A DNA stretch of 64,000 nucleotides from a virus. Position numbers and translations under genes: made by a program. Shown here piece after piece: positions 459 through 64,000 of this stretch. Within the stretch, counting starts at the first letter, position 1, and each line of letters begins with the position of its first letter. The notes beneath the pieces are model-generated. The model was not told where the DNA came from. It saw only the letters and a program-made list of their open reading frames with translations, and ran no database searches. The stretch spans positions 120,543-184,542 of IMG/VR virus record IMGVR_UViG_3300011113_000747. One strand, written 5' to 3'.

Positions 459-460
459 GA

Positions 461-1429: not shown

Positions 1430-1438
1430 TTATACTAT

Positions 1439-3743: not shown

Positions 3744-3778
3744 TATGATTATATTTATGGCTTTTCATAAATAATCAT

Positions 3779-5251: not shown

Positions 5252-5278
5252 TAACACAACATTTAACTAAATAATAAT

Positions 5279-6291: not shown

Positions 6292-6542
6292 TTACGTTTG
6301 CTGAATTTTTTACTGAGAATCTTCGCGATTGGTTCAAATCACATCGCGATCCTAAAACTGGTAAAAAATTCAAAGGGTGGATTAATTGTAAAACAGGAGG
6401 CCCTTGTGGTAGAAATAATACTAATAAAGGGTCTTACCCTGCATGTAGACCTACTAGACAGCAGTGTAAAAAAATAAAAGGTAAGATGTATAAGAAAAAA
6501 GGACCAAAACGTGTCCAATGGAAGAGTAAGAAGAAAGACTAG
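6288..6542 (+). CDS. Small basic Cys-rich late protein (LRDWF...GPCGR...YPACRP)
   Basis: 84 aa; N-terminus MITFAEFFTE resembles the T4 capsid-targeting sequence. Confidence 0.7.
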   Translation: MITFAEFFTENLRDWFKSHRDPKTGKKFKGWINCKTGGPCGRNNTNKGSYPACRPTRQQCKKIKGKMYKKKGPKRVQWKSKKKD

Positions 6543-6558
6543 TCATTAAATAATATAA

Positions 6559-45519: not shown

Positions 45520-47865
45520 AAACTAAATTTTATACATTCAATCAAAACAACAGCGGTGGCAGCTTTCGTTATGATGCACAGCGAGGCATCACTCGCTATG
45601 TCATTGTGGAAGCAGTCGATCGGAACCATGCTATAAGCCGAGCAGAAAGCATTGGCTTGTACTTTGACGGTGTTGAAGAAGGGCGAGACTGTGAATGCTG
45701 CGGTGATCGTTGGTACAGGCCATATAGTGATGAAGGCAAAGATGAACCTTGTGTCTATGATACTCCAGTTGCATCACATAAGCGCAACGAGTGGGGCTTC
45801 TTCAAGGATGATCAAAAAGAAATTGCTGTTCATTATTTGGATGGCCGCATTGAATTGCTTTGCTAATCATGCTCGTCACAGACCAACAGAGAAACTCAAC
45901 AAAAGAAGAAAACAACAGGAACTGCAGTAGTAGTTGATTCGCACAAAACCTGATTTATAATATCTAAATGAAAAACAAAATCCTCACGTTTATTGCAATG
46001 GCTTGTCTTTTTACCAGCTGCACTGAAAATCAAATGGCTAAACAGTTTGGGGGTACCATGAAAGTGGATCTTCCCCCAAATACTGAATTTGTCAATGCTA
46101 CTTGGAAGAATGACCAATTGTGGTATATTTATCGACCACGTAAAGAAGGTGAGTCCATTGACGTGATCACTATGCAAGAAGATTCCAACTTTGGTCTTTT
46201 GGAAGGTAAGGTGCAATTCAACGAACATTGAAATACCCACATGCAATGCTTGCTAACGCATAAGCCTGTTGTATAATAATACAATAAGGAAAGTTGATAT
46301 AATAATTGTATGAGCAAGCCATTAATTCACGCACAATCGTCAGCACGCAAGTTTGGTGGAACTTGGGAAGATTATATCGACATCCACGAGCTAATGGATT
46401 CATCCAAAGCGGTGACTTCTCTTCCTACTCACAGAGCACTCACTCACAACACCTGGTTCGTTGCAAGCATATTGACTCGCATCTTCGGCGAAGTATTTCA
46501 TCGCAAGAGTGATGGTAAGCCTGTTTCGACTCGAGACATTGGTGAGCAGCACATTGCAGAAGATTATCGGGGATTCATTCCAAGTGCTTCTGACTTCATT
46601 GACTGCCTCAATGTGGAAGATTGGATGATGAATGGCAAGGGCAAGCCACCTTCTCATGCTCTCATCATCAAGCAACAGCAAAAGAATCTCAAAGAAAAAT
46701 CCGCAACCGTAGATTAAAACAAACTAAAACAAACACATGAAAATCGAACAACTCAAGAAACAAATTGAAGACCACACCAGCAAGATTGCTGCTCTCAAGA
46801 AACAAATGATGGAAGAACTGCGCAAGGACTTTCATGGAGCTCTTGTGGAGCTCTTTGATGCCTATCCATTTGTACATGCAGTTCACTTCACTGCATACAC
46901 TCCGTACTTCAATGATGGTGATGAATGCACCTTCAGCAGCCACCATGATGACTGCGGCTTCAATGGCTATGATGGTTATGGTGATGATAAAGACTCATGC
47001 GTAGAAAATGCTTTTGGTGACATCGAGGGCGAAAACATTTGCCACACTTCTCGTGAAACCATTTATGTTAAAGGAGAAAACGGCAAGTGGGGAGATGTTA
47101 TCAATCCTAACTTCAATGCTCTACATAAAAAAGCAGTTGATGACTTCCGCGATGCTCTCAATGCAGTGGGCGATGAAGAATGGAAGGAACTGGTGGGTGA
47201 TCATTGCATTGTGATGATTGACCGCGAAGGCATTCACGTCGAAGAATACAGTCACGATTGATATGAAATTTGAACGCAAAATCATTGAAACTGTAGATGT
47301 CACAATCCTAGACATCAGACTGCCAGTTCGCTATGAAGATGAGGATATTCCATATAATGCACCCATGAGAAAGGGTGAAGTGTGGCATGCTAAGATTAAC
47401 ATTGATGAAGGCAAGGTAATCAATTGGCCGCAAGGCAAAACACTTGACATGTACATGAAAGTAACTGACTCTGGAGTGTATACTCTTTATACAGATGAGT
47501 TGGAAGAAGTTGCTTCAAGGCATGACTATGTGCCGCATGGACTGGTGCCTGGTGAATATGGCGATTATGTGCATCTCAAAATTGATGATAACGGCAAGAT
47601 CACCAATTGGCCTGCAAAAATTAGTCTTGAAGACTTTGAAGAAGAAGATTAGGAAATAAGATATAATAATAGTATGAAAGATAATCTTAATAAGCTCGTT
47701 GGTTTTGCTGAAACCCTTTTTACTGGTAAGAATGTTGTTCATTCTACCGTTAAAAGCTCTACTAGTGTGGGTAAGTCGACTGAGAAGCGTTGCTTCTCTA
47801 TTGCTCTTGATCGTTTCAATAATGGTGGATATATTGTTAATCGTTCTAATCATATCTGGGGTTAA
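45516..47865 (+). other. Hypothetical ORFs 45516-45866, 45968-46231 (lipoprotein, FTS-C), 46310-46717 (DUF6915-like), 46737-47261, 47263-47652, 47674-47865
   Basis: Co-oriented; several have their own TATAAT-N6-ATG. Confidence 0.65.
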
Positions 47866-49209: not shown

Positions 49210-50196
49210 ATGAAAAAAATCATTAATTTCTTCGCAAGCCTCAAGTTTGTCTTCATGCCTCATTATTGGGTCATGGATGATGGTTATAATGAAGAATGGG
49301 ATAAAAAGTTTTGCGAGCTTGTTAAAGCGCACGACTTCGAACCAGACTGCGACCTTGACCAAGAATTTGGCAATCAAACATACACTGCATTCCTTGGTGA
49401 GTATCGTATTTGGGTAAGTAATTATCCTTTTGCCTTTTTCAGTTTTTGCGGCAAGCGTGGTGGGGATTATAACACGTCTAGTATTCGTCCCAGCCGCCTC
49501 ACCATTGCCAAATACTACAAGAAGCTCAAAGCTGATCTTGCCAAACACAACTGCACACATCGCTAATTCATATGTTCTACCAAGACAAAACTCTCCAAAA
49601 CAAAATTCATGGTGCCAAGTTCCTTGGCTTCACTCGCAGGGATGAAAGCACCATTCTCATCACTACTGATCGTGGTAACATTAATGTGAGTGTTTCAGGT
49701 GACTGTTGCTCTCATTCCATCTTCTATGATGTGGTGGTGCCTGAAGAATGCTTTGGTGCTGAAATCACCGGCTTTGACACATGGGATCGTGAGAGTCCAG
49801 TGCCAACTGAAGAGCAGGTGAACGCAAAGGCCATTGCACTTTGTGGTGAGCATGGATGGTCTTCTGAATGTCTCAGCATTTGGGATGTCAAGCTTCAAAC
49901 CACCAATGGCACCATCTACCTGCGCCATGTCAACAGCTCCAATGGCTATTATGATGGTATTGTGATCATCAAATGTTATTACTAATATGGCTCTTACAGA
50001 TTGTCCCAAATGCTGGAATGCAGAAGAACAATGCACTTGCAGTGAAAAACAAATTGGTACATACAAAGAAGAATTTGAAAAACTTCGACACATTTGCTTG
50101 AAGATTTATTATGCTCGCATTGCAATGAGAGAAGATCTGGTCATCAAAGGTCTTGATGAGATTGATGCATACTTTCGTGAACCTAACATGAACTAA
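49210..50196 (+). other. Hypothetical ORFs 49210-49566, 49572-49985, 49987-50196
   Basis: Packed behind TTGACT..AGGAAA..TACAAT-N6-ATG. Confidence 0.6.
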
Positions 50197-50197
50197 C

Positions 50198-50608
50198 ATG
50201 GATAAACTTCAAAAGCTATTTGACATTGGATTTAGACAAATTGGTAAATGGAATTGTAATCCTAATCTTCAACTTGAAAGAAGCTTCAAAGGTACGCGTA
50301 AGAACGTCCTGTATGCCTTTGTTGTAGATGGTGAGCCTATGTATGTGGGTAAAGCAGGAGACTTTATGGGTGTTATGAACGCTTATAGGCATCCTGGTAA
50401 ACGCTCAACACGCATTCGAATCAAACAACATCTCATCGATCGAATTGAAGCTGGGTGTAATGTTATTGTTTTAATGTTCGAACAAACAGATGATATGTAC
50501 TTTCATGGGATTAAGCTCAATCTCTGCCATGCCCTTGAAGAAGAAATTATTAAAATTATGAACCTTGAATGGAATATAATTGGTAAGGTAAAAGGAACAA
50601 ACGTATAA
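50198..50608 (+). CDS. GIY-YIG nuclease, T4 endonuclease II (DenA)-like
   Basis: NVLYAFVVDGEPMYVGKA..LEEEIIK.MN.EWN parallels T4 EndoII. Confidence 0.6.
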   Translation: MDKLQKLFDIGFRQIGKWNCNPNLQLERSFKGTRKNVLYAFVVDGEPMYVGKAGDFMGVMNAYRHPGKRSTRIRIKQHLIDRIEAGCNVIVLMFEQTDDMYFHGIKLNLCHALEEEIIKIMNLEWNIIGKVKGTNV

Positions 50609-50615
50609 TAGATTT

Positions 50616-52244
50616 ATGGAAAGCAAAGAACCAAACATTACTGCTATCAAAGGTATTATCCGAGACCGGAATATCTGCGGTTACAATGATAAGCGCAAGA
50701 ATGGTCGTCGTATCAAGATCACCTCATGTATCTCTCATGCTGACCAAGATCTACTCGAACGTGTTTTGCCGCAATGTTACCCGCAGTATAAAGTAGCGGT
50801 TGGTAACTATATTACCAAACCTAGTTGGGGTAAGCCATATGTAGCTACCGCAATTCATTTTCGGAATAAGTAATTGATATGACTATTACCCTTCAAATTC
50901 CTGATCAAACATTGAGTAAATACTCAAACTTTATTGAAGCAGGTACTGGTGTCCCAGGACCTCAAACTGCAGAAGAGTGGTCACTATACATTACTGATAC
51001 AATAATCAATAATTATATGACAGAAAAATTCGGCACTGATAACAATAATGTTGAGTTTATCTAATGATTGTTGCAGATAAAAATAATAACATAATCAAAG
51101 TTGGATCTACTCTTTCAATAAGAGGGGTTGATCATAAAGTGATTGATATAATCTTACCATCAACCATAGAGGGTTACCTTATAGTAATGGACAACACAAA
51201 TGGCAATACTTATAAGGTATACCCAACTCTTTTTGGTGGGAAGTGGGATAGAGATAGAGAATACATTATAGGTAAAACTCCCACTAAAAAGAATTTGATT
51301 TCTAAGGGAAAGAAATTATAATTATAGGGTAAGAAAGATTAAATGCTCCAGTGGCGAAATTGGCTGAAACGCATGAGATTTAAAATCTCATACCCACGAG
51401 GTAAACACTGTCGGTTCGAATCCGACCTGGAGTACCATTTTCAAAAGGAAAGTCTATATAATTAAAACATGAAGTATGTCCCAAAAGTTCCTAGTGTTGT
51501 TGAAGCTAAGACTCTCCTCGGTCAAGGTAAGTTCCCTTATTACCATCCTTGTAGTGTTTGTGGTAAAGCTTGCTCTACTCCAACTAAAGTCTTCTGGCAG
51601 AAACGCCTCAATGAGTTTGGCTCTGTAGAAGAACTCTATAGTAAGTTTACTTGCCGTGATTGCCGCAAGAGCAAGAAGCAGCTCAAGAAAGAACGCGTAG
51701 CTGCTCTAGTTGGTAGTTCTAGTTCTGTATCTACTTTGTATCAGCGTAAGCCGGGTGATGCAATCAAAATTGCTCCAGGTCATATCGGCTTCTCTGTCTG
51801 GGAAGATGGTAAGTTTCTCGGCACCACTATGCATCGTTTGGTTGACAAACAAAAGAATTAAGGAACAAAGATATAATAGATTTATGAACAAATATAATAA
51901 AGGTAAAACCGAAAAGGTTATTGAAACTGAGTTCTACCATCGTAGGTGGAATGGTAGTGGTTTTCATTCACATCACAACAAGCTGACTGGTGCGTTTGGA
52001 ATCACCAAGAAGGAATGGTTCCGAATGGTTGAAGATCGTAATCGTAAAACTAAAGCTCTTCGTCAGAAAATCAAAAACGGAAAATAATATGAGTGATAAA
52101 GTAACTGTGAATGCAGGTGGTGGTGGCTGTTTTAGTCTTATTCTTACCATCATGGTTTTGTGGGCTCTTTGGTTTGGTCTGCCAACTCCATGGGGTGTAT
52201 TTGAGATTGATATCTTTCCTCCGGGATTGTTTATCAATAGGTGA
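50616..52244 (+). other. Hypothetical ORFs 50616-50873, 50879-51064, 51064-51321, 51469-51861 (CxxC..CxxC zinc ribbon), 51884-52087, 52089-52244
   Basis: Co-oriented, with starts adjacent to promoters. Confidence 0.6.
51345..51437 (+). tRNA. tRNA-Leu(TAA)
   Basis: GCTCCAG/CTGGAGT acceptor stem; TGAGA-TTTAAAA-TCTCA; variable arm TACC/GGTA; GTCGG-TTCGAAT-CCGAC; encoded CCA. Confidence 0.93.
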
Positions 52245-52251
52245 GTTTAAT

Positions 52252-52326
52252 GCGCTTGTAGCTTAAAGGTGAAGCGGGGGTCTCATAAACCCTAGAGTGT
52301 TGGTTCAAGTCCAACCGGGCGCACCA
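52252..52326 (+). tRNA. tRNA with CAT anticodon (elongator Met or Ile2)
   Basis: GCGCTTG/CGGGCGC; loop CTCATAA; T arm GTTGG-TTCAAGT-CCAAC; CCA; lacks initiator features. Confidence 0.9.
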
Positions 52327-52331
52327 ATTTC

Positions 52332-52440
52332 GACTCAGCAGCGTGGACAGTGACATGCATGGCATTATAACAAGGCAATACCTAGTCCGCTATGTAGTCT
52401 TGCAAGGGCGGAGCTGGTGCAATTCCAGCCTGAGTCACCA
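52332..52440 (+). ncRNA. tRNA-like RNA A (109 nt, no canonical anticodon arm)
   Basis: GACTCAG/CTGAGTC acceptor stem, A73 + CCA, D stem GCGT/ATGC, T arm GCTGG-TGCAATT-CCAGC, 54-nt middle. Confidence 0.75.
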
Positions 52441-52443
52441 AAT

Positions 52444-52535
52444 AGGAGGATAGTTTAACACGCGAAAACCAGAGTTGTATTGGCAACCGCCTTGAGTGGC
52501 ATCTGATGCAGGTTCAAGGTCTGCTCCTCCTTCCA
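52444..52535 (+). ncRNA. tRNA-like RNA B (92 nt, branched structure in place of the anticodon loop)
   Basis: AGGAGGA/TCCTCCT acceptor stem, U73 + CCA, D stem GTTT/AAAC, T arm GCAGG-TTCAAGG-TCTGC. Confidence 0.78.
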
Positions 52536-52775
52536 ATTTTTATGAAAGAAAATACTGAAATAGATGAATTGCAGAGAAGATTGCATGACGCTCATGAATC
52601 ATCTGCAATGCTGCGAGACAAAATTGATCATTTAAAAGCTGAGATAGAAGATGCAAAGAACATTCTTCGCAAAGAACTTGATAGAGATTATGATGCTCAA
52701 GACACGCTGCGTACTTTAGTTGTTGTAGCTACAAATGCACTCTTTTATGCAAGAGGAAATAAACTATAATTAGAT

Positions 52776-53378
52776 ATGTCAAAAATCTTCTTCACCTCCG
52801 ACACCCATTTCGGACACGCCAACATCATCAAGTATTGCGCCAGGCCTTTTGCTGATGCCAATGACATGAATGAAAAGCTCATTGCCAATTGGAACAATGT
52901 TGTCTCTCCTGATGATGTTGTTTACCATCTTGGTGACTTTGCATTTGGCAGCATCTCTGATGTCAATCGTGTGATGCATCGTCTCAACTTTGCTCACATG
53001 CACTTCATCAAAGGCAACCACGACAAGCCTTTTCTTAATTGGTACAATGATTATAAGTGCGGCAATGATGCACTTGCGCGCAAAGTGACCATCTATCCTC
53101 ACTTTCTGGAGACCAACATCAACAAGCAGAAGTTTGTGCTGTGTCACTACGCAATGAAGGTATGGAATGAAAGTCATCGTGGAGCACTGCACCTGTATGG
53201 ACATTCGCATGGTACTCTGCCAGATGATCCCAACTCCAAGAGCTTTGATGTTGGTGTGGATTGCCACAACTACCATCCCATCAGCTTGGAACAAGTGCTA
53301 GAGATCATGGACAAAAAGAAGGTGGAGAACAATTTTGAGAATCTACCTGGCGTCAAAGCAGGCATCATCAGAGAATAA
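52776..53378 (+). CDS. Calcineurin-like phosphoesterase
   Basis: FFTSDTHFGH, YHLGDF, GNHD, LCHYA, HLYGHSH, DVGVD. Confidence 0.92.
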   Translation: MSKIFFTSDTHFGHANIIKYCARPFADANDMNEKLIANWNNVVSPDDVVYHLGDFAFGSISDVNRVMHRLNFAHMHFIKGNHDKPFLNWYNDYKCGNDALARKVTIYPHFLETNINKQKFVLCHYAMKVWNESHRGALHLYGHSHGTLPDDPNSKSFDVGVDCHNYHPISLEQVLEIMDKKKVENNFENLPGVKAGIIRE

Positions 53379-53381
53379 CAG

Positions 53382-53418
53382 TTGACTAGATTAGGAAACT
53401 CGCTATAATAATTGTATG
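53382..53418 (+). promoter_or_regulatory. Example sigma70-type promoter: TTGACT-N5-AGGAAA-N5-TATAAT-N6-ATG
   Basis: Near-identical layout before 33241, 49210, 54518 and 55527. Confidence 0.8.
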
Positions 53419-54417
53419 AAATTAGCTTCTATTGAACTCATCTCTAACATTCAACCTCATCCCAATGCTGATAAATTGGACCTAGCTAAGGTGCTAGGCT
53501 ACACCTGCATCATTGAAAAGGGCAAATACAAAGTTGGTGATGCAGTTGTGCTCATTCAGCCTGATACTGTGCTGCCTGACAAACCATGGGCTGAAGTGTT
53601 CAAGAAGAAAGGCAATCGCACCAAAGCCATCAAGCTCCGCGGTGTGTGGTCTTTTGGTATTGTCATGAGTCCTTATGATGTTTGCGACTTGAGCGATCTC
53701 AAGGGCATGCTGCTGCCCAGCAACATTGGCAAAGACATCTCTGAACGCATTGGAGTTACCAAGTACGAAGCTCCTCAGCCTCAGCAGCTGGACGCCAAAG
53801 GTCACTTGCCATTTGGTCTGGGTAAGACTGATGAAGAACGCTATCAGAACATTCTTGATTTGCCATTCGGTGAAATTGTTGATGTGACTCTCAAGATTGA
53901 TGGTCAGAGCGCCACTTACTACTGCCGCAAGGATCGTGAGACTGGTGAGTGGCATACTGGCATCTGCTCTCGCTCTCTTGAAATGAAGCCAGAGTGCAGC
54001 AACAATTACACTCGCATCAATATCAAGTATGACATTCTCAGCAAGCTACTCAACTATTGCAGCTTTAATGACGTGAGTTTGGCTCTGCGTGGAGAGATTT
54101 TTGGAAACAACATTCAAGGTCATGGCAACAATCCTCATGCCAAGATGCCTCTGGACTTTGCTGCGTTTAGTGTTTACAACTTTGATACCTTTCAGTATGA
54201 AAACACTGATGATGCTCACAATTATGTGAATGTGTGTAATGCATTGCAACTCCCAACTGTGCCTATCATTGCCACCAACATCCTCACTCCAGAGCTCATC
54301 AAGCACTATGCTGAAGACATCTCTGAAATTGATGGCAAGCCTTTTGAAGGTGTGGTCATCAAGCACAGCAAAGGATCGTTTAAAATTATCAATTTGAGTT
54401 ACGATTCTGGAAAGTAA
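53416..54417 (+). CDS. RNA ligase, DRB0094/Rnl5-like (N-terminal OB domain)
   Basis: KLASI..I.PHPNADKL, KTDEER.QN, motif I KIDGQS, LRGEIFG, EGVVIK. Confidence 0.9.
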   Translation: MKLASIELISNIQPHPNADKLDLAKVLGYTCIIEKGKYKVGDAVVLIQPDTVLPDKPWAEVFKKKGNRTKAIKLRGVWSFGIVMSPYDVCDLSDLKGMLLPSNIGKDISERIGVTKYEAPQPQQLDAKGHLPFGLGKTDEERYQNILDLPFGEIVDVTLKIDGQSATYYCRKDRETGEWHTGICSRSLEMKPECSNNYTRINIKYDILSKLLNYCSFNDVSLALRGEIFGNNIQGHGNNPHAKMPLDFAAFSVYNFDTFQYENTDDAHNYVNVCNALQLPTVPIIATNILTPELIKHYAEDISEIDGKPFEGVVIKHSKGSFKIINLSYDSGK

Positions 54418-54517
54418 TTATGTTTGAAGTCTTGGCTGCAAACTACCAAGAAGTTGAAAAGGTATTCAAGTCACTAAAATCAGTTGTTTAAATTAGGAAA
54501 TTCGCTATAATAATTGT

Positions 54518-55760
54518 ATGAACGAAAATACACCTACCATTCAAAACACTCTCGAAAATGCCCTCATCACCTCCATCGAGGGTATCAAAAAGACCGGTAC
54601 AGAGCTTGTTGATGCTCTTTATCAGCAAGCCCCTGAAGTAATTGAGCAACTTTTATTGTGGCATGGTGTTGAATCATTTATTCTGTTCTTAGTATCGCTA
54701 GCAATGCTCAGTGTGCCGTTTATTTTTTATAAATTGGCTGCGGCTGCTTATACGAAGTTCAACGTCGCAAAAATGAGCGATGAATTTCCTTATTGGATGA
54801 TTACTATTGTATCTGGAATTGTTTCAATAACAGCCTCTACCGCAATGGCCATTGATCTAATGAACCTCAAATGGCTCAAAATCTGGCTGGCTCCAAAAGT
54901 TTACTTGCTGGAATATTTGACCACTTTGGTGAAATAAGTTGATTGTGACAAAACCTCTACCATAATATCAACATGAACAACAATAGCATCGTCGTTTATC
55001 GATCTGAAATGGAGCGTATGCAAGATGAATTTTGGATGGACTTTATGTCTTCCAATGCATCTTGGATGCAATACGTTATTATGGCATTCTTTGGCTTCCT
55101 CATTCTTTTCATTCTCGGTGTGTTCTGCACCGTCATTTACAACATGTTCAAGTTTCGCAAAACCTTCAAACGCTAATTCATTATGAATCCCCTTATTGCA
55201 TTTCTTCTTGACTATCTTGCTGGCGTCTTTGTTATGGCAATCATCACTCGTTATGAGAATGCCAAAGAAAAAAGCAAACAAACATGCTTGGACCCCAGCT
55301 TCAGCTTGCTGTCTTGGATTGGTGTTGCTATATACGTTATTTGCACTTTGGAAAAATCTTACAAAAATGGCTTCATTGCCAAGCTACTCAACTACACCGA
55401 CAAAGAGTAATGCTACCATACATCATCGTTGCCATTTGGTTGGTGCTGAGCATGTTGGCTTTGTGTTTGTTCAACACAAATGCAGATAACAGTTGATTTG
55501 ATTAGGAAAATCCACATAATATCAACATGAACAAAACCTCACAATACTCCACTGAAATTCAATACAAAGTTAGGGACAATGAAAACCAACAATTCATCCA
55601 AGTTGCTCCTGATGCAGCTGGATTTGGCTGCGTTGAAGTTGCTTACATAAAAGATGGCATTATTGATCGTACTGATCGTATCACCATGCCGCCTGAAATG
55701 GCTCTGCTGGTTGCAGAAGCTATTAAGAAGGTTGCAGAACATATTATTACTAATGAGTAA
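54518..55760 (+). other. Small, mostly membrane ORFs 54518-54937, 54973-55176, 55183-55410, 55527-55760
   Basis: Hydrophobic segments; three have (T/C)ATAAT-N6-ATG. Confidence 0.6.
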
Positions 55761-56854
55761 TGAACTTGATCTACACCCCATCTGCTACTATGACATGGCT
55801 GAAGATGAAATCAATCGCTTCAAACATCTAAGAGAAACGTTTATCTCTGATAAACAGGCAGATCTAAGTAAGGTTTCACAATCTGAAGTCAACGAAGAGA
55901 TTCAAAGGGATTCTAAGCGAGACCATCACGCTCCTATCTCTTTTAAGTATGTCTATCCATAATTAAGGAAAGTCGATATAATAATTGTATGAATAAAATT
56001 GATACTATTTCTGTTGGTGAGCTTATTGACATTCTCAAAGATTATGATGAGGGTATGCAAGTTGCTTTCTCTTGCAATTATGGAGATCGAGCTCGTACTC
56101 AGCAAGTGATCACCATCAGAGGTAATATTAATGAAGAAATTCTCTACAAGTCTGCCTATTCTGACTCTGGTTGGGCTGTTGATACCAATGGTTATAACGA
56201 AGATGAAGAAGGTACCACTTCGATGCTGATCATTAGGTAATAAGGAAACTTGATATAATAATTGTATGAAAGACAAATATACTCTCCGCGAGCAGCTTGA
56301 AGCTTTTGAAGCTGATAAGTTTCTTGATGATGACTGCTTCTATTTTTATGATTGGTTCTGCCGTGATAAGTCTCTTGAGCGTAAGGCTCGTAGTCTGATG
56401 GCAAAGGTCAAGAAGTTCGTCAAGGCTGCTAAGATTGATGTTGATAAGACTTATGTCTTCTTCAAGAACAATTGCCCGGTGTATGGAAGCCTATATGATG
56501 ATTTCCGGATCTGCGATGCAGAATCTGGTGATGTGATCTATACAGTCGCACCCAGCCTTGGTTACGACAGGAAAAAGGGCGAAGCTGAAGTTTGGGGTCG
56601 CGCCAATAACTTCAATGATGCCATGCATCATGCTCCTTCCTGGTCGCAGCTGCTTAAAACCTTTACTGCACCGGCTTAATGGAAAAGTCCGAGGAGCTTA
56701 CCATTGAAGAGGTAGATCTGATTATCAGATACTATGAAAAGCTTATGGTAAGCTTCCCAGATGCAATGAACCTGGATGATACTCTTAAGCATTGGCAAAA
56801 TCATAAGTCACAACTAATTAGAAAACAAAATACTAACAACATACACAAAAGCAT

Positions 56855-57331
56855 ATGGGACTCGACATGTACGTCTTCTACACCAATCGTACCAATCATA
56901 CTTCTGATGAGCTAGTAAAGATTAACAACATTAAACACCTCAACCCCGAGACACCTGAAGCTCAGCCATTTCTACCGCTTCGAGAATATACAGCCCTCAA
57001 AGGAGTGTTCACCATTTTCCACGAAGGTGCTTATTGGCGTAAAGCCAACGCCATTCATGGCTGGTTTGTCGATAATGTGCAAAAGGGTGTTGATGATTGC
57101 GGGTACTATGAATTGACCCGCGAACATCTTGAAACGCTTCGCATTGCTTGTGCTCAAGCCCGCAAGACAAAAAATGGCGGACCTCTTCAGCCGCGTGGTG
57201 GTTTCTTCTTTGGATCTCTTGACATTGATGATTGGTATTGGGCTGATGTGAAGCGCACCATTGAACAGATTGACAAGCTTCTGGCAATGGATTGGGATGC
57301 TCGCCGTTTCTTCTACCATTCTTCCTGGTAA
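56855..57331 (+). CDS. Phage hypothetical protein (MGLDMY..YWRKANAIHGWF)
   Basis: Motif recalled from many phage ORFs. Confidence 0.7.
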   Translation: MGLDMYVFYTNRTNHTSDELVKINNIKHLNPETPEAQPFLPLREYTALKGVFTIFHEGAYWRKANAIHGWFVDNVQKGVDDCGYYELTREHLETLRIACAQARKTKNGGPLQPRGGFFFGSLDIDDWYWADVKRTIEQIDKLLAMDWDARRFFYHSSW

Positions 57332-58416
57332 TAAATAAGGAAAGAGTATATAATAATTGTATGAATACGAATATGAGAATTGGTTGCATTTTGAGTATTA
57401 TCTCGATCTGCATTTTTATGGTAGTGGCTAGCATCAAGCCAGTTGACACCTCTGTTATCAATGATAACATTCACTTTATTGAGTTCTGCAAATCAATCTG
57501 CTAATTATGGATCCTAAGCATATCATAACAGCAAAGTGTGCTTTGCTACATCTTAAGCAGTTTTATGATGAACAGCACGCTATAGCTAAGCAATGTCTAG
57601 ACCGGTGGCCTGGAGATAATAGTCACTGGGAGGAAAGTTTGAAGTATTGGTCAGAAAGAAAAGTTGAAATCGAAGAATGCTTACAAGCTTTTCGTGATTA
57701 TAAATTCCAGTAAGGAAACCTAATATAATAATAGTATGAAATCTCAATTTAAATTGCTTGAAATTAAGCACGAAGATATGTTTCGTTGCGTTGTGGATAT
57801 GTTCCATGACTTTTGTTTCGTTGATAACGAGCCAGTTAAGGATCATATGTGGATGTTTGAGCCTCTGAAAAATCCGAATGAGTTCATCGATGCTGTTACA
57901 ACCGGTTCGATGGCATTTACTTATATGATCGGTCTTCATGAAGAACTTGAAGAGATGAATCGTAATAACGAAGATGGTGTGGTGATTGTTATGAAAGATA
58001 ACGAGCCTTGGACTTCTGTTATCGTCTCTAAACTCAGTTGGTAATATGATGGATAAGCTATCTTGGGTGGTGACCTACATTACAGAGTTTAAATCGTATG
58101 ATGAAAGACCTGGTGTAATTAGGCATCTAACAGAAATTGTTAAAGCTAATAACGCTGATGAAGCAATAGCAATGGTTGAGAAATATGCTAGTAACTCTGC
58201 TGGAAAGATGAGTTACGATTTCAAAGCAAGAGTTGCTACTTATGCTGATCTACTACATCATTACTCATAATGAAGTCATATAAAATTACCCAGCATGTAA
58301 TTGGCTCACCAAATATGTATTGGGCTTTGAAACTACTTCGCAATGGTGAGGTTGTTAATGTTCACACAAGTAAGAATAAAACTTGCGTCATGGCTATTGC
58401 AAAAAACTGGATGAAA

Positions 58417-58432
58417 TATAAATAATGGTATG
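58417..58432 (+). promoter_or_regulatory. T4-type late promoter TATAAATA-N5-ATG (second copy at 58781)
   Basis: Exact T4 late consensus; core TAAATA also precedes 925, 3779, 5279, 6559, 14386, 17663, 22144, 22490, 23107, 26820 and 28129. Confidence 0.85.
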
Positions 58433-58789
58433 AATCGCAAAGATCAAAAAGATATCGGTAAACTTTATATCGAAGCGGTGCAAGGCAATCTAAGACCTGT
58501 TACTGCTGATTATATTTACTTTGATGATGAGGGTGAGCTCTATCAGGTAGATCCATACAAGCTATTAGCTGGTGGTATTGAAGGTGATGTAGACCAAGGT
58601 GCAGCACTCTATAACAAGCTAAAGCAGAGAGGTGTGCGTTGGAAAGAAGCAAGAATTGCTGCGAGCGATGATGTTAGAGAGTTAATGCCTGGAGCTTATA
58701 ACCAAGTTTCATCAGAAGGGCGTTGGGTTCAAGTTGATAACTCTTTTCCTAGCGACCACTCATTTCTTGTTAAGTTAGGCTATAAATAA
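58430..58789 (+). CDS. Late protein, MNRKDQKDI family copy 1
   Basis: Own late promoter; shared 5' end with copy 2. Confidence 0.75.
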   Translation: MNRKDQKDIGKLYIEAVQGNLRPVTADYIYFDDEGELYQVDPYKLLAGGIEGDVDQGAALYNKLKQRGVRWKEARIAASDDVRELMPGAYNQVSSEGRWVQVDNSFPSDHSFLVKLGYK

Positions 58790-58793
58790 TGGT

Positions 58794-59186
58794 ATGAATC
58801 GCAAAGATCAAAAAGATATCAGCAAACTTTATAACGAAGCAGTAGGCCGTAATAAGAGAAAAGATCAGATCTTCCAAGCTGCTTACGCTCTTGGTAAGTA
58901 CTTAGATCAAAGGCCAAACGACTCTCATATTGGCAGCCTTAAGCAAGACTTCTCTAACGATCGCTTTACAGAAGAAAATGAAACTTTTGTTAATAGAGTG
59001 TTCCAAGCTGGTGAAGAAATTGGTTTGGATCTCGAAGCGATGAACTTAAGATGGAATGAGCTTCTTGCTCTTGTAAGCGATGCTATTGAAATTCCTCTCG
59101 AGACAGATGGTGAGTATGTTAATGTTGCTAACGATGATTCAGATTTGAAAGCAGCATTTGGTGGTACACCAGCTGGCTTCCACTAA
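58794..59186 (+). CDS. Late protein, MNRKDQKDI family copy 2
   Basis: Own late promoter; shared 5' end with copy 1. Confidence 0.75.
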   Translation: MNRKDQKDISKLYNEAVGRNKRKDQIFQAAYALGKYLDQRPNDSHIGSLKQDFSNDRFTEENETFVNRVFQAGEEIGLDLEAMNLRWNELLALVSDAIEIPLETDGEYVNVANDDSDLKAAFGGTPAGFH

Positions 59187-59207
59187 TAACAAAAATTAAT
59201 AAACCCT

Positions 59208-59245
59208 AAATGAGGTAGGTTTTGTGGCCTGCCTCATTTTTTTTT
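59208..59245 (+). terminator. Intrinsic terminator closing the late insert
   Basis: AAATGAGGTAGG/CCTGCCTCATTT stem followed by a T tract. Confidence 0.88.
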
Positions 59246-59274
59246 GTCTAAAGGAAAGTCCATATAATAATGAT

Positions 59275-62200
59275 ATGAAAGATTTCAAAGAAATTGAAGT
59301 GATTGCTAATGTTGATGGTGTTGAGCAAGTTGCCTATATCGTAGATGGTTCCGATCTTGGAGCTAATCTAGTATCTGCTGCCCTTGATTATGGTATTGGC
59401 TTTAGTGTGCCTTTTGATAGGTTTGTCCAGGCTGGTATCGAAAAAAAGGTTTGGACTAAGAAGGATGATAAGCTTCTTCTTAGCGAGCAGGCTGATTGGG
59501 ATGACTTTTACGAATATGTTAGCAAGCTTGAAGACGAATTTCTTAAAGCAAAGTAATTACAAACAAGGAAAGTTGATATAATAATAGTATGAAAGAAAAT
59601 AATACTAATAGTGCCGAAGCTCGTCTGCGAGTTATCCGTTTTGTAAATAGTGCTATTGATGATGCTTCATATGGGTATGCTGTTGGTAAGCTTGAAGGGT
59701 TGTTGATTAATCTCGTAACTAGTTGCCCTGAAGCGTGTGCATGGGTTAGCAAAAATCTCGAAGCCTATAAGAGTGAAGACAACAAATAAGGAAAATTAAT
59801 ATAATAATAGTATGTTCAATTCATATAATCAAACGTTTGGTGTACCTCAAGGTGAGCATAATGAAGACTATGCTGAAGTAGCAAGTGAGCTCTTTTCAGA
59901 ATTTGATTGGAATGCTAGCGTTGCTGACAATACTGATAAGTTTAAAGCTAAGCTTGATGAGCTGCTTGCTGATACTTGGGAGAATGATGAAGGTGAAGAG
60001 TATAAGCTGTTGATTGATAACAACGCTAAGGCTCATATTCTTCGAGCTAGCTTTCATAACGCTAACGAGAACTTCTACGAGCTCGAAGATGAAGGTGATA
60101 TTGAGGACCGTTTTGTTACGCAAGATGAGTTTCTCGAGGCAGTTGAAAACGCTCTCAAATTGGTATAGTATGACTCAAAACGATATCAACATCCTCCGCT
60201 CCAAGATCTATCAAGTTCATTTCGCAATCGAACGTTTGTTCGCTCATGTGAAAGACAACAAAGAAGTATGGGAATGGGCTATTGCGAACGATATCGAAAA
60301 TGGTCACGCTAGCGATCTTTGCGATATAGCGGGTGTGCTTCATGAATGGAGTTTGGAGTTCGAAGCTGAATTTTCTAACTATTTTCAGAATAAGGAAAAT
60401 TGATATAATAATAGTATGAGTGATAAAATCTCCGATATTCGAAAACAAATTGATTTAGTCAGCAAACTACTTCAGGAGCTTCAGGCTGATTTAGATAGTT
60501 TAAAGCGAAACAATACCGCAATCTTCGACAATTTTAGTGATAATAATAGTATTGAACAAATTGGTGATGCAGTAATGGACTTTACTAGTCAGGGTGCTGA
60601 GTTCGCAATTCGTTCTTCAGGTGAATATGCTTACAACGGCTTCTATCTAGGTGAAACAGCTGATGGTGAGTGCCCTTGGGAGATCATCGTAGATGATGAG
60701 AAAGCTTGGGTGCTTAAGCTCAAAGAAATCGAATAAGGAACTTTAATATAATATAGGTATGAAAATTGAAGATCAAAACATTCAGCTTGCGTTAGAAAGT
60801 GTCCGAGAGTTTGTCGATAAGCATGTGCACGCACCGGATGCTATCAATGGTTATGCTCGTGCTTGTGGAGCTCTGCGAGGTGTACTAGAAGGTATGATCA
60901 AGTATGTGCCAGAAGCTCGTGAGCATTTCATCAAGTATCATACACACTTTAATAAGGAAGGTTGATATAATAATAGTATGGGAGAAGTAACCTACAAACG
61001 CAGCAATTGGACGACCGAAGAGGTAATTGAACTGATTAAGGGTCAAAAAATCGTCAACTCAGACGGAGAAGAGGATGAATATTGCAAACAGCACAATTCG
61101 GTTGTTGATGATGTTGTTGATTACTTCTACGATTTCATTCGCCCGCTAACTGAATTTGGTGCGCTGGGTATGTGTAATGAAGATGGTAATGTCTATCATA
61201 TCGGCGGCATTCCTGAAGAATTCGTAGAAGAATGGAAAGCTAAAAGTATTAAGGAAAATTAATATAATAATAGTATGGAAGATCAAATTATTTATCTAGT
61301 TTACGCGGTAGAAACTGACTCTGACGATTTGAATAGTCATGATGTTTGGGCTGCAGCTGATAGTTATGATGTAGCTGATAAGATTGCTAAAGCTGATACA
61401 GCTGATGAGCAAATTCGTCCGAACTGGTTCATTCAGCAATTCAAACTCAATACCAAGTCAGATATTGAATAAGGAAAGTCGATATAATAATAGTATGAAA
61501 CGCTACCTTAATAAAGACACGCTAATTATTACCGCTGAAGATATCGCTAAGTTCCTCGAGGGTAAGAAAGCTCGAGTTGCTAAGAGTAAGAAGTACGAAT
61601 ATGGTGAGCGAGTTACTCCTTGCGATACTTATCGAAAGAAAGGCCGCCATGAGTACATCTTTGTAAGCTCTATGCGTTGGGTGCCTTTTGATGGATACCC
61701 TTCTATGAGTTATGGAGGTTACATTCTGTTTAATCCTCGCACGAATAAGCTGATTAGTGCAACGAACATTCTATCTTTGGAGCACGATGAGAAGAATGTG
61801 GGTTGGTATGGCACACGCGGTAAGATCTAATAAGGAACTTTGATATAATAATAGTATGAACACCACACTAAAAGCCTCTCTTCTTCGCTTTGTCCTTTGG
61901 TCAGGTATTGCCATTCTCACGCATAACAACCCTCCAGGACCTTCTCTTCCCGAGCTGGTATTCATGTTGGCAGCAGGCGAGGTAATCATTGCCTCCTGCC
62001 CTTTCCTTGAAACAAAAGGAGAATAAGGAAAATTGATATAATAATAGTATGAATCGATTTGATAAACTTGAATATCTGCTAGAAACTTGCTCAGAAGAAT
62101 TCATCAGTAGCTGTATTATGCTACGTGAGATGGTAGGGTGGATGAGTGAGAATGACTTTGATGAGTTCTATGATAAGTTGTGCAGTAATTGGAATATTCG

Positions 62201-62945
62201 ATAGTAGAGATGACAATTAAGAAATCAATTACTATTGAGGTCGAAATGACATCTAGTGCATCAGAAGCATGCTTGTCAGATCATATGAGTCACTTCATTG
62301 GTGAGATTAAAAGATATATCGACAATATGCGATATCAATCATGGCATAACACAATTAGCACATCATGGGATGAAAGCGAAAAGGTTGAAATTGATGTAAA
62401 AATTAGTTAAAACCTTATAAAAATCAGATAAAAACTCATAGAATATATAAAGTATTCTCTGAGAACGGGTTAGAGCTAAGGCGGCCTAATAGGATAGAGT
62501 AAGCCATTGCGATCGAACACTTTAAGTGAAATACACGCTAAGGAAGCAATAGACGGAAATGTCGAAATATAAGGAAATAAGATATAATAAGAGTATGACA
62601 AAAGACGAAATTAAGAAAGAAATTGAAAAGGCTCGAAAGAATTTGGAAGCGCTTGAAAAGAAGCTCGCGCAGAAGCATTCGCTGGGAGATGAGAGCGTTA
62701 AGAGTCGAATTAGCGACGCTGCGGATTACTTCCGAGCTGAGCTTGAAGCTGCGGGACTTAAAGACATCAGCATTTCGTTCGGTGAGGTGGCGAATGGAGG
62801 TGATTTCGCTGAGCGCTCTATATTTCTAAGCGGCGCGCATAAAAACAGTCTGAATGGCTGGAAATGGAAGTTAATTGATGAAACCAAACACGGGCAGCAA
62901 GTGCTTGTGCGCGTTGATATTGTGACTGGCAGGTGCATCGACTAA
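59275..62945 (+). other. Cassette ORFs 59275-59556, 59589-59789, 59812-60168, 60170-60403, 60416-60736, 60759-60965, 60978-61262, 61275-61472, 61495-61830, 61856-62026, 62049-62204, 62595-62945
   Basis: Most start exactly at a repeat ATG; mostly acidic, no recognisable family. Confidence 0.7.
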
Positions 62946-62956
62946 GAAGATTTTAT

Positions 62957-63034
62957 ATCCGGGCATGTTCCAAGGCAAGGCGACTTTGACTCCAAATCAG
63001 AGTGAGTAGAGTTCGATTCTCTATCCGGATGCCA
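62957..63034 (+). tRNA. tRNA-Trp(CCA), slightly non-canonical
   Basis: ATCCGGG/TCCGGAT; TTTGA-CTCCAAA-TCAGA; TAGAG-TTCGATT-CTCTA; G73 + CCA. Confidence 0.85.
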
Positions 63035-63068
63035 TTTATTGAATAAGGAAAGACGATATAATAATAGT

Positions 63069-63296
63069 ATGAATAACGAACTTACTACTTCGCTCGTCTG
63101 GGTCGTCACCACTCCTTCCGCTTACCGCCTCAGCCACCAGTGCTTCCTCGGATCTGGCCCCACCAAGACTGCAGCCCTGGAAGACGCCTTCGGGCCGAAG
63201 GATAGCTGGGGCAACAGCACCAAGAAGTCCATCCGCAACGCTGACGTCTACCAGGTGACCGAAGATGAATGCCGCGAGATGCAGATGCGCAGCTAA
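63069..63296 (+). CDS. GC-rich cassette ORF, hypothetical
   Basis: 39/60 and 36/60 G+C in lines 63121 and 63181; identical 30-bp flanks. Confidence 0.75.
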   Translation: MNNELTTSLVWVVTTPSAYRLSHQCFLGSGPTKTAALEDAFGPKDSWGNSTKKSIRNADVYQVTEDECREMQMRS

Positions 63297-63332
63297 ATAA
63301 ACCTTATTAAGGAAAGACGATATAATAATAGT

Positions 63333-63530
63333 ATGAAATATTCAACTGAAGACCGTATTGCTGATACCTTTATGGAAGCTCTCGATGACTTGAGCGATCA
63401 TAACCTTGAAGCGCTCCGTGAAGCGTTTGACTCTGGACCCATTACTGATCCTCGTAACCTTATTAAGATGCTGTTCCGGGAGGTGCTAGACCAGGTTCGT
63501 TATCGAGCGCAAGAAGGGGTTGATGCATAA
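63333..63530 (+). CDS. Cassette ORF, hypothetical
   Basis: Starts at a repeat ATG. Confidence 0.65.
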   Translation: MKYSTEDRIADTFMEALDDLSDHNLEALREAFDSGPITDPRNLIKMLFREVLDQVRYRAQEGVDA

Positions 63531-63584
63531 GGAAAGTTGTTATAATAAGAGAGTAATTTAACATCCAAAATCAAATTAGATATT

Positions 63585-63914
63585 ATGAAAGAAAAGTTTA
63601 CCGCAACGATGGTGTTCAACTCTGATAAGGAGCTTGTTCAGGGACTTCGAGATGGGTACGATCTTGGTGAGAAGGAGCTGATGGCTCTTGTTATCCAGAC
63701 CGCTCTCGATCACAAAGACACTCTGAGTACTCGAGTTGCTAACTATAAGGAAGCACTTGAAGCATCGAAGGCGGCAATTGCTAAGCAGAAGGCTGACGAA
63801 AAGGAACAGGCAAAGATTGAGCGTGCTGCTCTGCGTGAGGCTAAGAAAGCCGAGAAGGCCGCAGAGAAGGAGAAGGCTCTAGTTGCAGCAAAGAAAGGTA
63901 AGAAGAAGGCCTAA
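63585..63914 (+). CDS. Protein with a Lys/Ala-rich coiled-coil tail
   Basis: EAKKAEKAAEKEK...KKGKKKA. Confidence 0.65.
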   Translation: MKEKFTATMVFNSDKELVQGLRDGYDLGEKELMALVIQTALDHKDTLSTRVANYKEALEASKAAIAKQKADEKEQAKIERAALREAKKAEKAAEKEKALVAAKKGKKKA

Positions 63915-63941
63915 TAGGAAGCAATTGAAAGGATGTTAATA

Positions 63942-63976
63942 GAGGGGTGAGTGAATAGCTCACCCCTCCTCTCTTT
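63942..63976 (+). terminator. Probable terminator hairpin
   Basis: GAGGGGTGAG/CTCACCCCTC stem; weak pyrimidine tail. Confidence 0.7.
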
Positions 63977-64000
63977 ATAATAAGGAAAGTCGATATAATA

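Follow-up and report, generated by a model that had tools for sequence, protein, structure and literature searches.

The end of a lake phage genome carries short, near-identical repeats between small genes, and the question is whether these repeats are promoters, sites at which genes are exchanged, or both. The source record comprises 184,542 bp and bears a terminal repeat of 127 bp; the window analysed here is its last 64 kb (64,000 nt). The phage is complete, uncultured, of freshwater (lake) origin and only distantly T4-like; its DNA polymerase shares at most ~30% identity with that of any cultured T4-type phage. A preliminary description of the window had proposed that 19 near-identical repeats in 55963-64000 each fuse the previous stop codon, a promoter and the next start codon, that the ORFs between them are unrelated, and that recombination between repeats adds, drops or reorders genes in an integrase-free cassette system. 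The array belongs to the phage's hyperplastic early-gene region, and the whole is best explained, with a probability of roughly 0.7, by a repeat that acts as a compact, -35-less early promoter of predicted leaderless mRNAs and as a recombination site like those of T4-type cassettes.

The repeat has the pattern AAGGAAA-N4-ATATAAT-N6-ATG and forms a unit of ~27-30 bp. The 28-nt pattern of the preliminary description, with up to three mismatches allowed, matched 20 sites in the window, all on the + strand and 15 of them within 55963-64000, against no match in any of 100 shuffles that preserved dinucleotides. The looser core GGAA-N6-TAnAAT occurs exactly 19 times in that interval, as had been described; genome-wide it gave 74 copies on the + strand and 4 on the - strand (control pattern, 2/2). 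Nearly all copies lie on one strand and span both record ends. The array continues past the record end into genome positions 1-7,100 and is thus larger than first described. The features are listed in Table 1.

Table 1. Repeat-bounded units of the array, repeat copies upstream of it and associated features (window coordinates unless marked as genome).
Feature	Coordinates	Strand	GGAA	Contents
Repeat copy before g166852	46285..46312	+		ORF at genome 166852-167259
Repeat copy	47649..47676	+		G0-G003 homology ends exactly at upstream stop codon
Repeat copy without ATG before tRNA-Leu	51305..51437	+	51307	tRNA-Leu 51345-51437
Upstream copy and RNA ligase 2	53391..54417	+		-35 present (TTGACT, 16-nt spacer); RNA ligase 2 at 53416-54417
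Upstream copy	54493..54972	+		repeat 54493-54520; ORF 54518-54937 (139 aa)
Unit 1	55964..56240	+	55967	repeat 55964-55991, ATG 55989; ORF 55989-56240 (83 aa, no family)
Unit 2	56241..57335	+	56244	repeat 56241-56268; ORFs 56266-56679 (137 aa), 56679-56915 (78 aa), 56855-57331 (158 aa; phrog_7971, unknown function, sole widely conserved array gene)
Unit 3	57336..57710	+	57339	repeat 57336-57363; ORFs 57361-57504 (47 aa), 57507-57713 (68 aa), the second starting 2 nt past the first one's stop
Unit 4	57711..59207	+	57714	repeat 57711-57738, its TAA = upstream stop; five ORFs
Unit 4 ORFs	57736-58044, 58046-58270, 58270-58425, 58430-58789, 58794-59186	+		gaps -1 to 4 nt
Terminator-like hairpin and T-run	59208..59239	+		fold -10.2 kcal/mol, z -3.1
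Unit 5	59250..59563	+	59253	degenerate repeat 59250-59277; ORF 59275-59556 (93 aa)
Unit 6	59564..59786	+	59567	repeat 59564-59591; ORF 59589-59789 (66 aa), stop = next repeat's TAA
Unit 7	59787..60390	+	59790	repeat 59787-59814; ORFs 59812-60168 (118 aa), 60170-60403 (77 aa; runs into next repeat, ends at TGA there)
Unit 8	60391..60733	+	60394	repeat 60391-60418; ORF 60416-60736 (106 aa)
Unit 9	60734..60952	+	60737	degenerate repeat 60734-60761; ORF 60759-60965 (68 aa), stop inside next repeat
Unit 10	60953..61249	+	60956	repeat 60953-60980; ORF 60978-61262 (94 aa)
Unit 11	61250..61469	+	61253	repeat 61250-61277; ORF 61275-61472 (65 aa)
Unit 12	61470..61830	+	61473	repeat 61470-61497; ORF 61495-61830 (111 aa)
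Unit 13	61831..62023	+	61834	repeat 61831-61858; ORF 61856-62026 (56 aa)
Unit 14	62024..62569	+	62027	repeat 62024-62051; ORFs 62049-62204 (51 aa), 62210-62410 (66 aa); non-coding 62411-62569
Unit 15	62570..63043	+	62573	repeat 62570-62597; ORF 62595-62945 (116 aa); tRNA-Trp(CCA) 62957-63034, without own promoter
Unit 16	63044..63307	+	63047	repeat 63044-63071; ORF 63069-63296 (75 aa)
Unit 17	63308..63527	+	63311	repeat 63308-63335; ORF 63333-63530 (65 aa), stop = next repeat's TAA
Unit 18	63528..63941	+	63531	repeat 63528-63555, no ATG at predicted start; leader ~33 nt; ORF 63585-63914 (109 aa)
Second terminator-like hairpin of array	63942..63968	+		
Unit 19	63981..64000	+	63984	repeat cut by window end, inside 127-bp terminal repeat; continues at genome 109-135, then ORF 133-411

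In 49 aligned copies, information content is limited to a 30-nt unit in which GG and TATAAT never vary, 48 of 49 copies have T(-1) and the -35 position is unconserved. GGAA occupies -22 to -19, TATAAT occupies -12 to -7, and the T at -1 precedes the A of the ATG; a TG-type extended -10 is found in 7 of the 19 array copies. An ATG stands exactly 6 nt past the hexamer in 17 of the 19 (58 of 74 genome-wide) and opens an ORF of 47-137 aa each time, the exceptions being copy 18, with no ATG at that spacing, and copy 19, cut off by the window end. As for the proposed fusion with the upstream stop, six copies supply this stop with their TAA; in three it lies inside the repeat (read-through ending in KEN or KEG), and in four it falls at most 8 nt upstream. 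The stop-to-start distance is fixed at 22 nt in six units. Two of the three frames of this AT-rich unit contain stop codons, so it closes the preceding gene. The gaps between genes mostly measure 12-36 nt and are made up of repeat, and folding of the unit gave no hairpin or inverted-repeat structure. The array ORFs are mutually unrelated, as first described, save for 58430 and 58794, whose first 22 residues are common to both.

Some copies have no ATG and instead precede tRNA-Glu, tRNA-Asn and tRNA-Leu by 11-16 nt (16 nt from the predicted start of the window 51307 copy to tRNA-Leu), and the repeat is therefore a promoter and not a translation signal; host RNA polymerase would read it as a compact early promoter. 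The strand bias of the copies and the recurrence of the unit in phage contigs of otherwise dissimilar nucleotide sequence also favour a promoter. Since TATAAT ends exactly 6 nt before the ATG, the A of the start codon should be the first base transcribed and the mRNAs should be leaderless, a consequence of the geometry that was absent from the preliminary description and was added by the present analysis. Leaderless expression is known to be marked by a -10 element that adjoins the ORF (PMC12340547). SD-like words were absent upstream of all 188 ORFs of at least 120 aa, and in 26 of these a T4-type late box, TAAATA, ends exactly 5 nt before the ATG; TAAATA-N5-ATG occurs 45 times in the genome, versus 4 for the control. 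Promoterless genes start -1 to 5 nt from the preceding stop, which suggests termination-reinitiation coupling. Only two terminator-like hairpins were found for 19 units and 8 kb, and transcripts would probably read through as well. Contigs from the one RNA library that contains the region span repeats (e.g. 56199-56895), so read-through transcripts, or DNA, contain the repeat internally; these are assembled contigs that may include DNA and in which 5' ends are not visible.

It is highly improbable that the repeat acts at the RNA level, as a distant SD (AAGGA) with an AU-rich standby site or as a reinitiation signal, and not as a promoter. AAGGA could pair with the usual anti-SD, the repeat would be present in read-through transcripts, and the fixed stop-to-start distance fits such a role, but AAGGA lies ~19 nt from the ATG, far beyond SD range and with no hairpin to shorten the spacing, SD words are unused anywhere in the genome, the same unit precedes tRNA genes, and its core matches the -10 hexamer perfectly and is followed by T(-1)/A(+1). 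Rather unlikely is a phage-controlled promoter of a middle or regulated class, in which GGAA would bind a factor that the phage encodes or injects, either an activator standing in for -35 recognition or a repressor turning the early genes off. Sigma-70 makes few base contacts in the spacer where GGAA lies, and this word is nevertheless invariant in the 49 copies, among which no -35 is conserved, and is retained even in copies with a -35, and the promoters of G003, the closest complete relative, mostly lack it and have AGTTGAC at -35 instead. Against this, the analysis turned up no candidate factor, tRNA genes as well as early ORFs are driven by the copies, a perfect TATAAT with TG (7/19) may suffice as an extended -10 promoter, and the different spacer word kept in another lineage suggests homogenisation and not a shared binding site.

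The exchange of units was assessed in near-identical contigs from other, independent freshwater/lake metagenome samples (runs X2 and X4) and in relatives. Gain, loss and reordering with breakpoints in repeats were found; identical gene order with breakpoints unrelated to the repeat was not. In run X2, a 630-nt contig joins 61478 to 61840 in register inside repeats 61470 and 61831 (depth 107, the shorter arm spanning 212 nt), so that Unit 12 (361 bp; 61479-61839) is deleted. The longest exact stretch common to these repeats is 19 nt, shorter than the assembler's 31-mers, and the joint is therefore not a mis-join. The same run lacks a 464-bp cassette with ORF 54518-54937; both ends of the joint (54496 to 54961) lie in promoter units, and one promoter unit is left before ORF 54973. 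In run X4, repeat 60391-60418 is duplicated with ~145 extra nt between the copies, and this unit of ~178 bp is an extra cassette. One of four well-supported clean indels in the array is not repeat-bounded: in both runs 189 other letters stand in place of 62207-62419 (Unit 14).

Homologues of array genes in G002 and G003 occupy other slots in scrambled order; those of the Unit 10 ORF lie between homologues of g167805/g167279 and g168410. Homology between the lake phage (G0) and G003 ends at a stop codon or the first repeat bases (168191), or at the ATG (166852), and at the slot 47649..47676 the two carry different cassettes. At g166852, G003 DNA is 92% identical from the ATG on and has a different promoter, with a -35; among the relatives compared, orthologous genes bear the promoter type of their own genome. 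The repeat before RNA ligase 2 is conserved in G003 at the orthologous site. Natural variants and relatives show that repeat-to-repeat exchange deletes, inserts and relocates promoter-plus-gene units. The recombination proposed earlier is borne out by three repeat-bounded indels and the relocated homologues; a by-product of the phage's general short-homology recombination would account for it as well as a dedicated "system".

As hardly any intergenic DNA lies outside the repeat and its copies are near-identical, it is the preferred crossover site for homologous recombination, and the phage's own machinery, for which UvsX-like RecA and gp46-like SbcC genes are encoded, would cross over there. 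The least probable reading is that the repeats are integron-like attC/attI sites of an unrecognised site-specific enzyme. Single-gene units with one bounding repeat, in-register joints and cassette flux fit it, but a family search of the complete genome, in which controls matched, found no tyrosine or serine recombinase (integrase, resolvase) family, in keeping with the integrase-free character first proposed; moreover, the repeat forms neither a hairpin nor an inverted repeat, each cassette comes with a promoter of its own, and a crossover window in plain homology fits homologous recombination. It is also unlikely that the repeats are only promoters under selection for strong early expression, with recombination incidental and the breakpoints a matter of survivorship. 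With intergenic space almost entirely repeat, viable gene-level indels are biased to end there by selection alone, the replacement at 62207-62419 is not at a repeat, and functional constraint is suggested by the same consensus in phage contigs without other nucleotide similarity (G001, 15 copies). However, the 61478/61840 joint is more than intergenic, as it falls inside the repeats in exact register, and the spacer positions free to vary are genome-specific and locally clustered (neighbouring repeats show 5.9 differences vs 7.2 for random pairs; permutation p ~1e-4), which, together with the genome-typical promoters on orthologues, requires sequence exchange among repeats. G003 has two pattern matches at up to three mismatches and manages with promoters that are degenerate or have a -35, so near-identity of the copies is not required for promoter function in the lake phage; selection for strength, gene conversion and recent spread are its candidate causes.

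Recombination at such repeats is the published PeSL idea, to which the preliminary description had pointed, and no new principle. PeSLs (promoter-early stem-loops) are mobile regulatory cassettes of the T4-type phages RB49/phi1, T4/PST and KVP40/nt-1 (Arbiol et al. 2010, PMC2839356; Comeau et al. 2014, PMC4122927). Like them, the lake-phage units are repeated early promoters between small ORFan genes in hyperplastic regions, contain the upstream stop in their AT-rich portion and finish with the start codon at their 3' end, show indels between relatives with crossovers inside the units, and lack an integrase, PeSL recombination being attributed to the phage short-homology recombination system. 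Unlike PeSLs, they measure ~27-30 bp vs ~100 bp, contain the conserved GGAA spacer word and have no -35, AT-rich UP region, stem-loop, SD sequence or predicted 5' leader; with two hairpins for 19 units they are not transcriptionally insulated. The array is thus a stem-loop-free, SD-free and predicted leaderless variant of the PeSL cassettes. With integron gene cassettes it shares single-gene, repeat-bounded, unrelated units of mostly unknown function that are gained, lost and reordered, but it lacks an integrase, attC hairpin and common Pc promoter, each unit having its own promoter and exchange proceeding by homology. As in known leaderless promoters, only a few bases separate the -10 hexamer from the start codon downstream, a ribosome-binding site is missing and the -35 is optional; in contrast to these, the geometry, with starts inferred from sequence, occurs in a low-GC, freshwater, T4-like phage, in both a sigma-70-type early and a T4-type late class (TAAATA-N5-ATG), and the early units are near-identical repeats that serve as recombination sites.

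Allowing up to 3 mismatches, the window contains 20 matches to the 28-nt pattern of the preliminary description, all on the plus strand, and 100 dinucleotide-preserving shuffles gave none; with the looser core GGAA-N6-TAnAAT, the 19 copies claimed for positions 55963-64000 were recovered exactly. The complete IMG/VR virus record (184,542 bp with a 127-bp terminal repeat, hereafter G0), of which the window is the final 64 kb, carries the array beyond the window end, from about 161,000 across the record ends to about 7,100 in genome coordinates. Genome-wide, 74 copies were counted on the plus strand and 4 on the minus strand, and the reversed control pattern gave 2 on each; two minus-strand copies are at genome 4916 and 5006. 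Subtypes of the repeat are grouped by region, with a ATATTATT/ATATTAGT variant at genome 1.3-4 kb (1300-4200) and a GGAAC-CTC/CACTG subtype, identical to the type found in the related phage contig G001, at genome 5.2-6.9 kb (5200-6900).

The consensus was derived from an alignment of 49 copies bearing an ATG, in which the information content is about 0 from -40 to 3 nt before the unit and is high inside the unit only. The unit consists, in order, of AAGGAA (GG invariant), 4 loosely constrained letters, A, an invariant TATAAT, A, 4 semi-conserved letters, T, and ATG; the T directly preceding the ATG is present in 48 of the 49 copies, and an A-rich codon often follows the ATG. With the A of ATG set as +1, GGAA occupies -22 to -19, TATAAT occupies -12 to -7, and T/A is found at -1/+1. 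No conserved -35 element was detected upstream of the GGAA word in this alignment, a -35 match of at least 5/6 was present in just 8 of 59 GGAA copies, and a scan for two-hexamer promoters gave no enrichment (40 vs 32.3 +/- 5.9). An extended -10 TG precedes the hexamer in 7 of the 19 array copies. Three units folded alone gave 0 to -0.6 kcal/mol, which was not better than shuffles, and the 19 units in 8 kb are accompanied by only two convincing terminator-like hairpins. The invariant GGAA may represent a spacer contact, the site of a phage factor, or merely a homogenised letter string.

Repeat copies lacking an ATG, with the genes that they precede, and terminator-like hairpins of the array
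Feature	Position	Following gene	Predicted start relative to gene
ATG-less copy	genome 52921	tRNA-Glu (genome 52958)	15 nt upstream
ATG-less copy	genome 53561	tRNA-Asn (genome 53594)	11 nt upstream
ATG-less copy	window 51307	tRNA-Leu (window 51345)	16 nt upstream
Terminator-like hairpin 1	window 59208-59239		
Terminator-like hairpin 2	window 63942-63968		

The proposal that each unit contains a promoter was supported by several features. At its core stands the bacterial -10 consensus, positions -1/+1 hold the customary pyrimidine/purine, the orientation of the unit is strictly that of the genes, and 15 copies of it occur in the G001 contig, which has no other nucleotide similarity to G0. Moreover, ATG-less copies precede three tRNA genes (see table) and, because their predicted starts are placed 11-16 nt before these genes, the tRNA clusters would also be under a promoter of the repeat type. 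Taken together, these features argue that the unit works on DNA, as a promoter. A purely translational signal was ruled out by the ATG-less copies in front of RNA genes, and AAGGA was rejected as a Shine-Dalgarno sequence since some 19 nt separate it from the ATG, no structure shortens this distance, and it is also found before tRNA genes.

The ATG of the repeat starts the next ORF, as had been described, in 17 of the 19 copies, exactly 6 nt after the hexamer, and the resulting ORFs encode 47-137 aa; in copy 18 a leader of some 33 nt is present instead, and copy 19 is truncated by the window end. Across the genome, 58 of the 74 copies have the A of their ATG 7 nt after the hexamer (GGAA-preceded TAnAAT-N6-ATG), and TAYAAT-N6-ATG occurs 76 times compared with 6 in the control. 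It follows from this spacing that early transcripts from the repeats would be leaderless and start at the A of ATG. The T4-type late box, TAAATA, shows a corresponding geometry: exactly 5 nt separate its end from the ATG in 26 of the 188 ORFs of at least 120 aa, a sharp peak, and TAAATA-N5-ATG is found 45 times genome-wide vs 4 in the control. Leaderless mRNAs are thus expected for the late genes as well. Examples of the late box are present upstream of window positions 3779, 5279, 11160, and 14386. Shine-Dalgarno-like words are absent, and none is enriched, upstream of the 188 ORFs of at least 120 aa. Both geometries, the early -10 and the late box, are also enriched in the related genomes or contigs G003, G002, and G001. 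A -10 box adjoining the ORF is an established sign of leaderless expression in Deinococcus-Thermus (PMC12340547), and the array shares with this class a fixed -10-to-start spacing and the lack of a ribosome-binding site. Parts of the array are present in the RNA library X17, as contigs that carry neither strand nor start sites and do not constitute proof of transcription.

G0 is T4-like only at a distance. Its T4-type genes encode a baseplate wedge protein, tail sheath, large terminase, Rnl1, Rnl2, and a family B polymerase (phrog_262), and a gp46-like SbcC, a UvsX-like RecA, and a gp55-like sigma fragment are also present; the polymerase has at best about 30% identity to that of any cultured phage. 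Megablast found no counterpart of the array among 50,697 phage records. The sole match of a motif scan over bacterial and archaeal genomes, a yak-rumen Abditibacteriota MAG, was taken as chance and not as a clue to the host.

Recombination at the repeats was assessed by comparing contigs from three DNA runs, belonging to different freshwater or drinking-water studies, and from one RNA library with window positions 50001-64000. Most short-sided joints and loose ends were discarded as mapping artefacts of the repeat, their letters matching other G0 repeat copies outside 50001-64000 (e.g., the joint of 56006 to 61473 and the loose ends at 56269, 59253, 61497, 61860, and 62573). The predicted gain and loss of cassettes with breakpoints inside the units was borne out by three of the four indels that are well supported by contigs of other lakes, one of them exactly in register. 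In the latter, a 630-nt contig of the DNA run X2 (depth 107) spans 61061-61478 and then 61840-62051 with no extra letters, and joins letter 9 of the repeat at 61470 to letter 10 of the repeat at 61831; therefore, unit 12 with its ORF (61495-61830) is missing exactly in register and one hybrid repeat is left. A repeat-induced mis-join can be ruled out for this contig because the longest identical stretch common to the two repeats is 19 letters, below the 31-mers of the assembler. An insertion was found in a 2,390-nt contig of another DNA run, X4, in which the repeat 60391-60418 is present twice with about 145 other letters between the copies; the length of this extra unit (about 178 bp) is compatible with an ORF of about 51 codons that opens at the first ATG and stays in frame up to the TAA of the second repeat. 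The third event is the absence from X2 of 54497-54960, including ORF 54518-54937, where the joint leads from inside the repeat at 54493 to a degenerate promoter before ORF 54973, so that one complete unit remains. In the fourth, 62207-62419 is replaced by 189 other letters in both X2 and X4, and the segment is not bounded by repeats. Outside the array, a tRNA-like gene at 52439-52538 is precisely absent, with a TAA in its place, from X2 (DNA) and X17 (RNA library).

The nearest complete genome was G003 (IMGVR_UViG_3300036770_007495, 224.7 kb; loci L066-L077), whose relationship to G0 is mosaic. Its core replication and structural genes share 30-55% protein identity with those of G0 (polymerase 51%, terminase 54%, sheath 40%), whereas 70-99% identity was observed in an early/accessory block at about 150-177 kb of the genome, in the tRNA region, and in the pair 86864-89895. 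This bimodal identity suggests that early genes were exchanged laterally and recently between distantly related phages. Gene order was found not to be conserved, in agreement with the shuffling that had been predicted: G003 homologues were found for just nine genes of the terminal array, in scrambled order, and homologues of four array genes (g181520, g1121, g3151, and g6258, named by genome position) are scattered in G002 within the conserved backbone between g167279 and rnl2. Homology between G0 and G003 stops at unit borders. At one slot, the alignment ends at a stop codon (168191) that coincides with the repeat's first base, and beyond it G0 has the repeat and g168216 while G003 has a homologue of g181520 preceded by a canonical promoter (-35, 17-nt spacer, -10, 6 nt, ATG). 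For g166852, nucleotide identity of 92% starts exactly at the ATG, with the repeat upstream in G0 and a -35-bearing promoter in G003. In the related contig L024 (JACCDG011169974.1), the orthologue of 56266-56679 is preceded by a stereotyped unit particular to that lineage, with another spacer word. At L024:700-6000, this unit comprises a -35 TTGA word, a conserved AAACCTGC-like spacer, -10, 6 nt, and ATG, and stands before most of the small genes. From these three comparisons it follows that promoter type tracks genome and neighbourhood rather than the gene.

Adjacent G0 repeats are also more alike than random pairs (5.9 vs 7.2 differences, permutation p ~1e-4). Tandem duplication could be invoked to explain alike neighbours and was rejected since neighbouring ORFs are unrelated; the alikeness of adjacent repeats and the tracking of promoter type with genome together need sequence exchange among repeats, by crossovers or gene conversion. 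The near-identity of the repeats themselves may stem from selection or from conversion. The assertion that no integrase is involved also held, as neither tyrosine (PF00589) nor serine (PF00239) recombinases were matched in the complete G0 genome, while control genomes were positive. An integron would have the tyrosine recombinase IntI (PF00589) near the array and attC sites that are hairpin-folding imperfect inverted repeats, neither of which is present; given the lack of a recombinase family in the complete genome and of a hairpin in the unstructured repeat, an integron-like mechanism is unlikely.

A closer parallel is offered by the promoter-early stem-loop (PeSL) cassettes of T4-type phages, which are units of about 100 bp composed of an AT-rich region, -35, -10, a stem-loop terminator, a Shine-Dalgarno sequence, and a start codon (PMC2839356, PMC4122927), and which give rise to indels and mini-circles in hyperplastic regions of these phages via homologous exchange (Arbiol et al. 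PMC2839356; Comeau et al. PMC4122927). The array resembles PeSLs in that it lies in a hyperplastic region of a T4-type genome, surrounded by small, non-essential ORFan genes, and in having crossovers of insertions, deletions, and replacements within units between close relatives. It differs in that the -10 is perfect but the -35 and AT-rich upstream region of the early promoter are absent, in that no stem-loop terminator or attenuator lies within the unit, and in that the ATG lies 6 nt past the -10 with no Shine-Dalgarno sequence at the 3' end. Thus, the array works in outline like PeSLs and, because it lacks -35, stem-loop, and Shine-Dalgarno sequence, is best regarded as a variant apart from PeSLs proper.

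Joining these observations gives a tentative reading, to which we assign a probability of roughly one in four. The near-identity of the units, with spacer letters homogenised in a genome-specific manner and genes adopting the promoter type of the genome that receives them, would exceed what a promoter needs, and the repeats would be kept as portable linkers for recombination. T4-like phages that share a host but are only distantly related would then swap ready-to-express, leaderless single-gene units, much as an integron does but with no integrase. The lineages so connected have core genes that are only 30-55% identical and shared early genes that are 70-99% identical, and the exchange would be coupled to lineage-wide transcription of early and late genes from the AUG.

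Promoter-mediated shuffling, proposed for coliphage-type relatives of T4, also operates in this very distant, uncultured freshwater branch, in a minimal form in which a single 27-bp unit is stop, promoter, start, and crossover site, and it is visible as it happens in wild populations of several lakes. The data also suggest a whole phage lineage with early and late genes expressed as leaderless mRNAs, which bears on gene calling (starts can be placed by promoter), on guessing hosts, and on the fusion of T4-type late promoters to start codons. The cassette products are 27 small proteins to which no function is assigned; their turnover is very high, a profile that is common among genes for host takeover and anti-defence.

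No Pfam family was matched among 30 ORFs compared, nor by any of the 27 array ORFs; in PHROGs, one ORF (56855-57331) was matched, to a PHROG of unknown function, and metagenome and viral scans with this ORF yielded no relative above 76% identity. For 20 of the 27 array ORFs, no homologue was found in any relative compared. At the upstream side of the unit, the repeat's TAA serves as the stop of the preceding ORF in 6 cases, the described ...KEN*/...KEG* ends arise where the upstream ORF stops inside the unit (3 cases), and in 4 cases the stop lies up to 8 nt before it; within the unit, two of the three reading frames are closed by stop codons. Where a gene lacks its own unit, its start lies -1 to 5 nt from the preceding stop, a spacing that looks like translational coupling. 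That the ORFs are mutually unrelated was true in general and failed for one pair, the tandem ORFs 58430-58789 and 58794-59186, whose first 22 residues are 77% identical and whose upstream letters are shared before the two diverge wholly; the pair may reflect a partial duplication or an N-terminal module swap. Rfam returned nothing credible for window 55900-64000. ARAGORN called a tRNA-Trp(CCA) at window 62957-63034, where Rfam gave no tRNA match at E up to 1, and this may be one of the phage's non-canonical tRNAs. Unit 14 includes a 160-nt non-coding gap (window 62411-62569) with no Rfam match and a modestly stable predicted fold (z -2.3), and its left edge falls in the segment that is replaced in X2 and X4.
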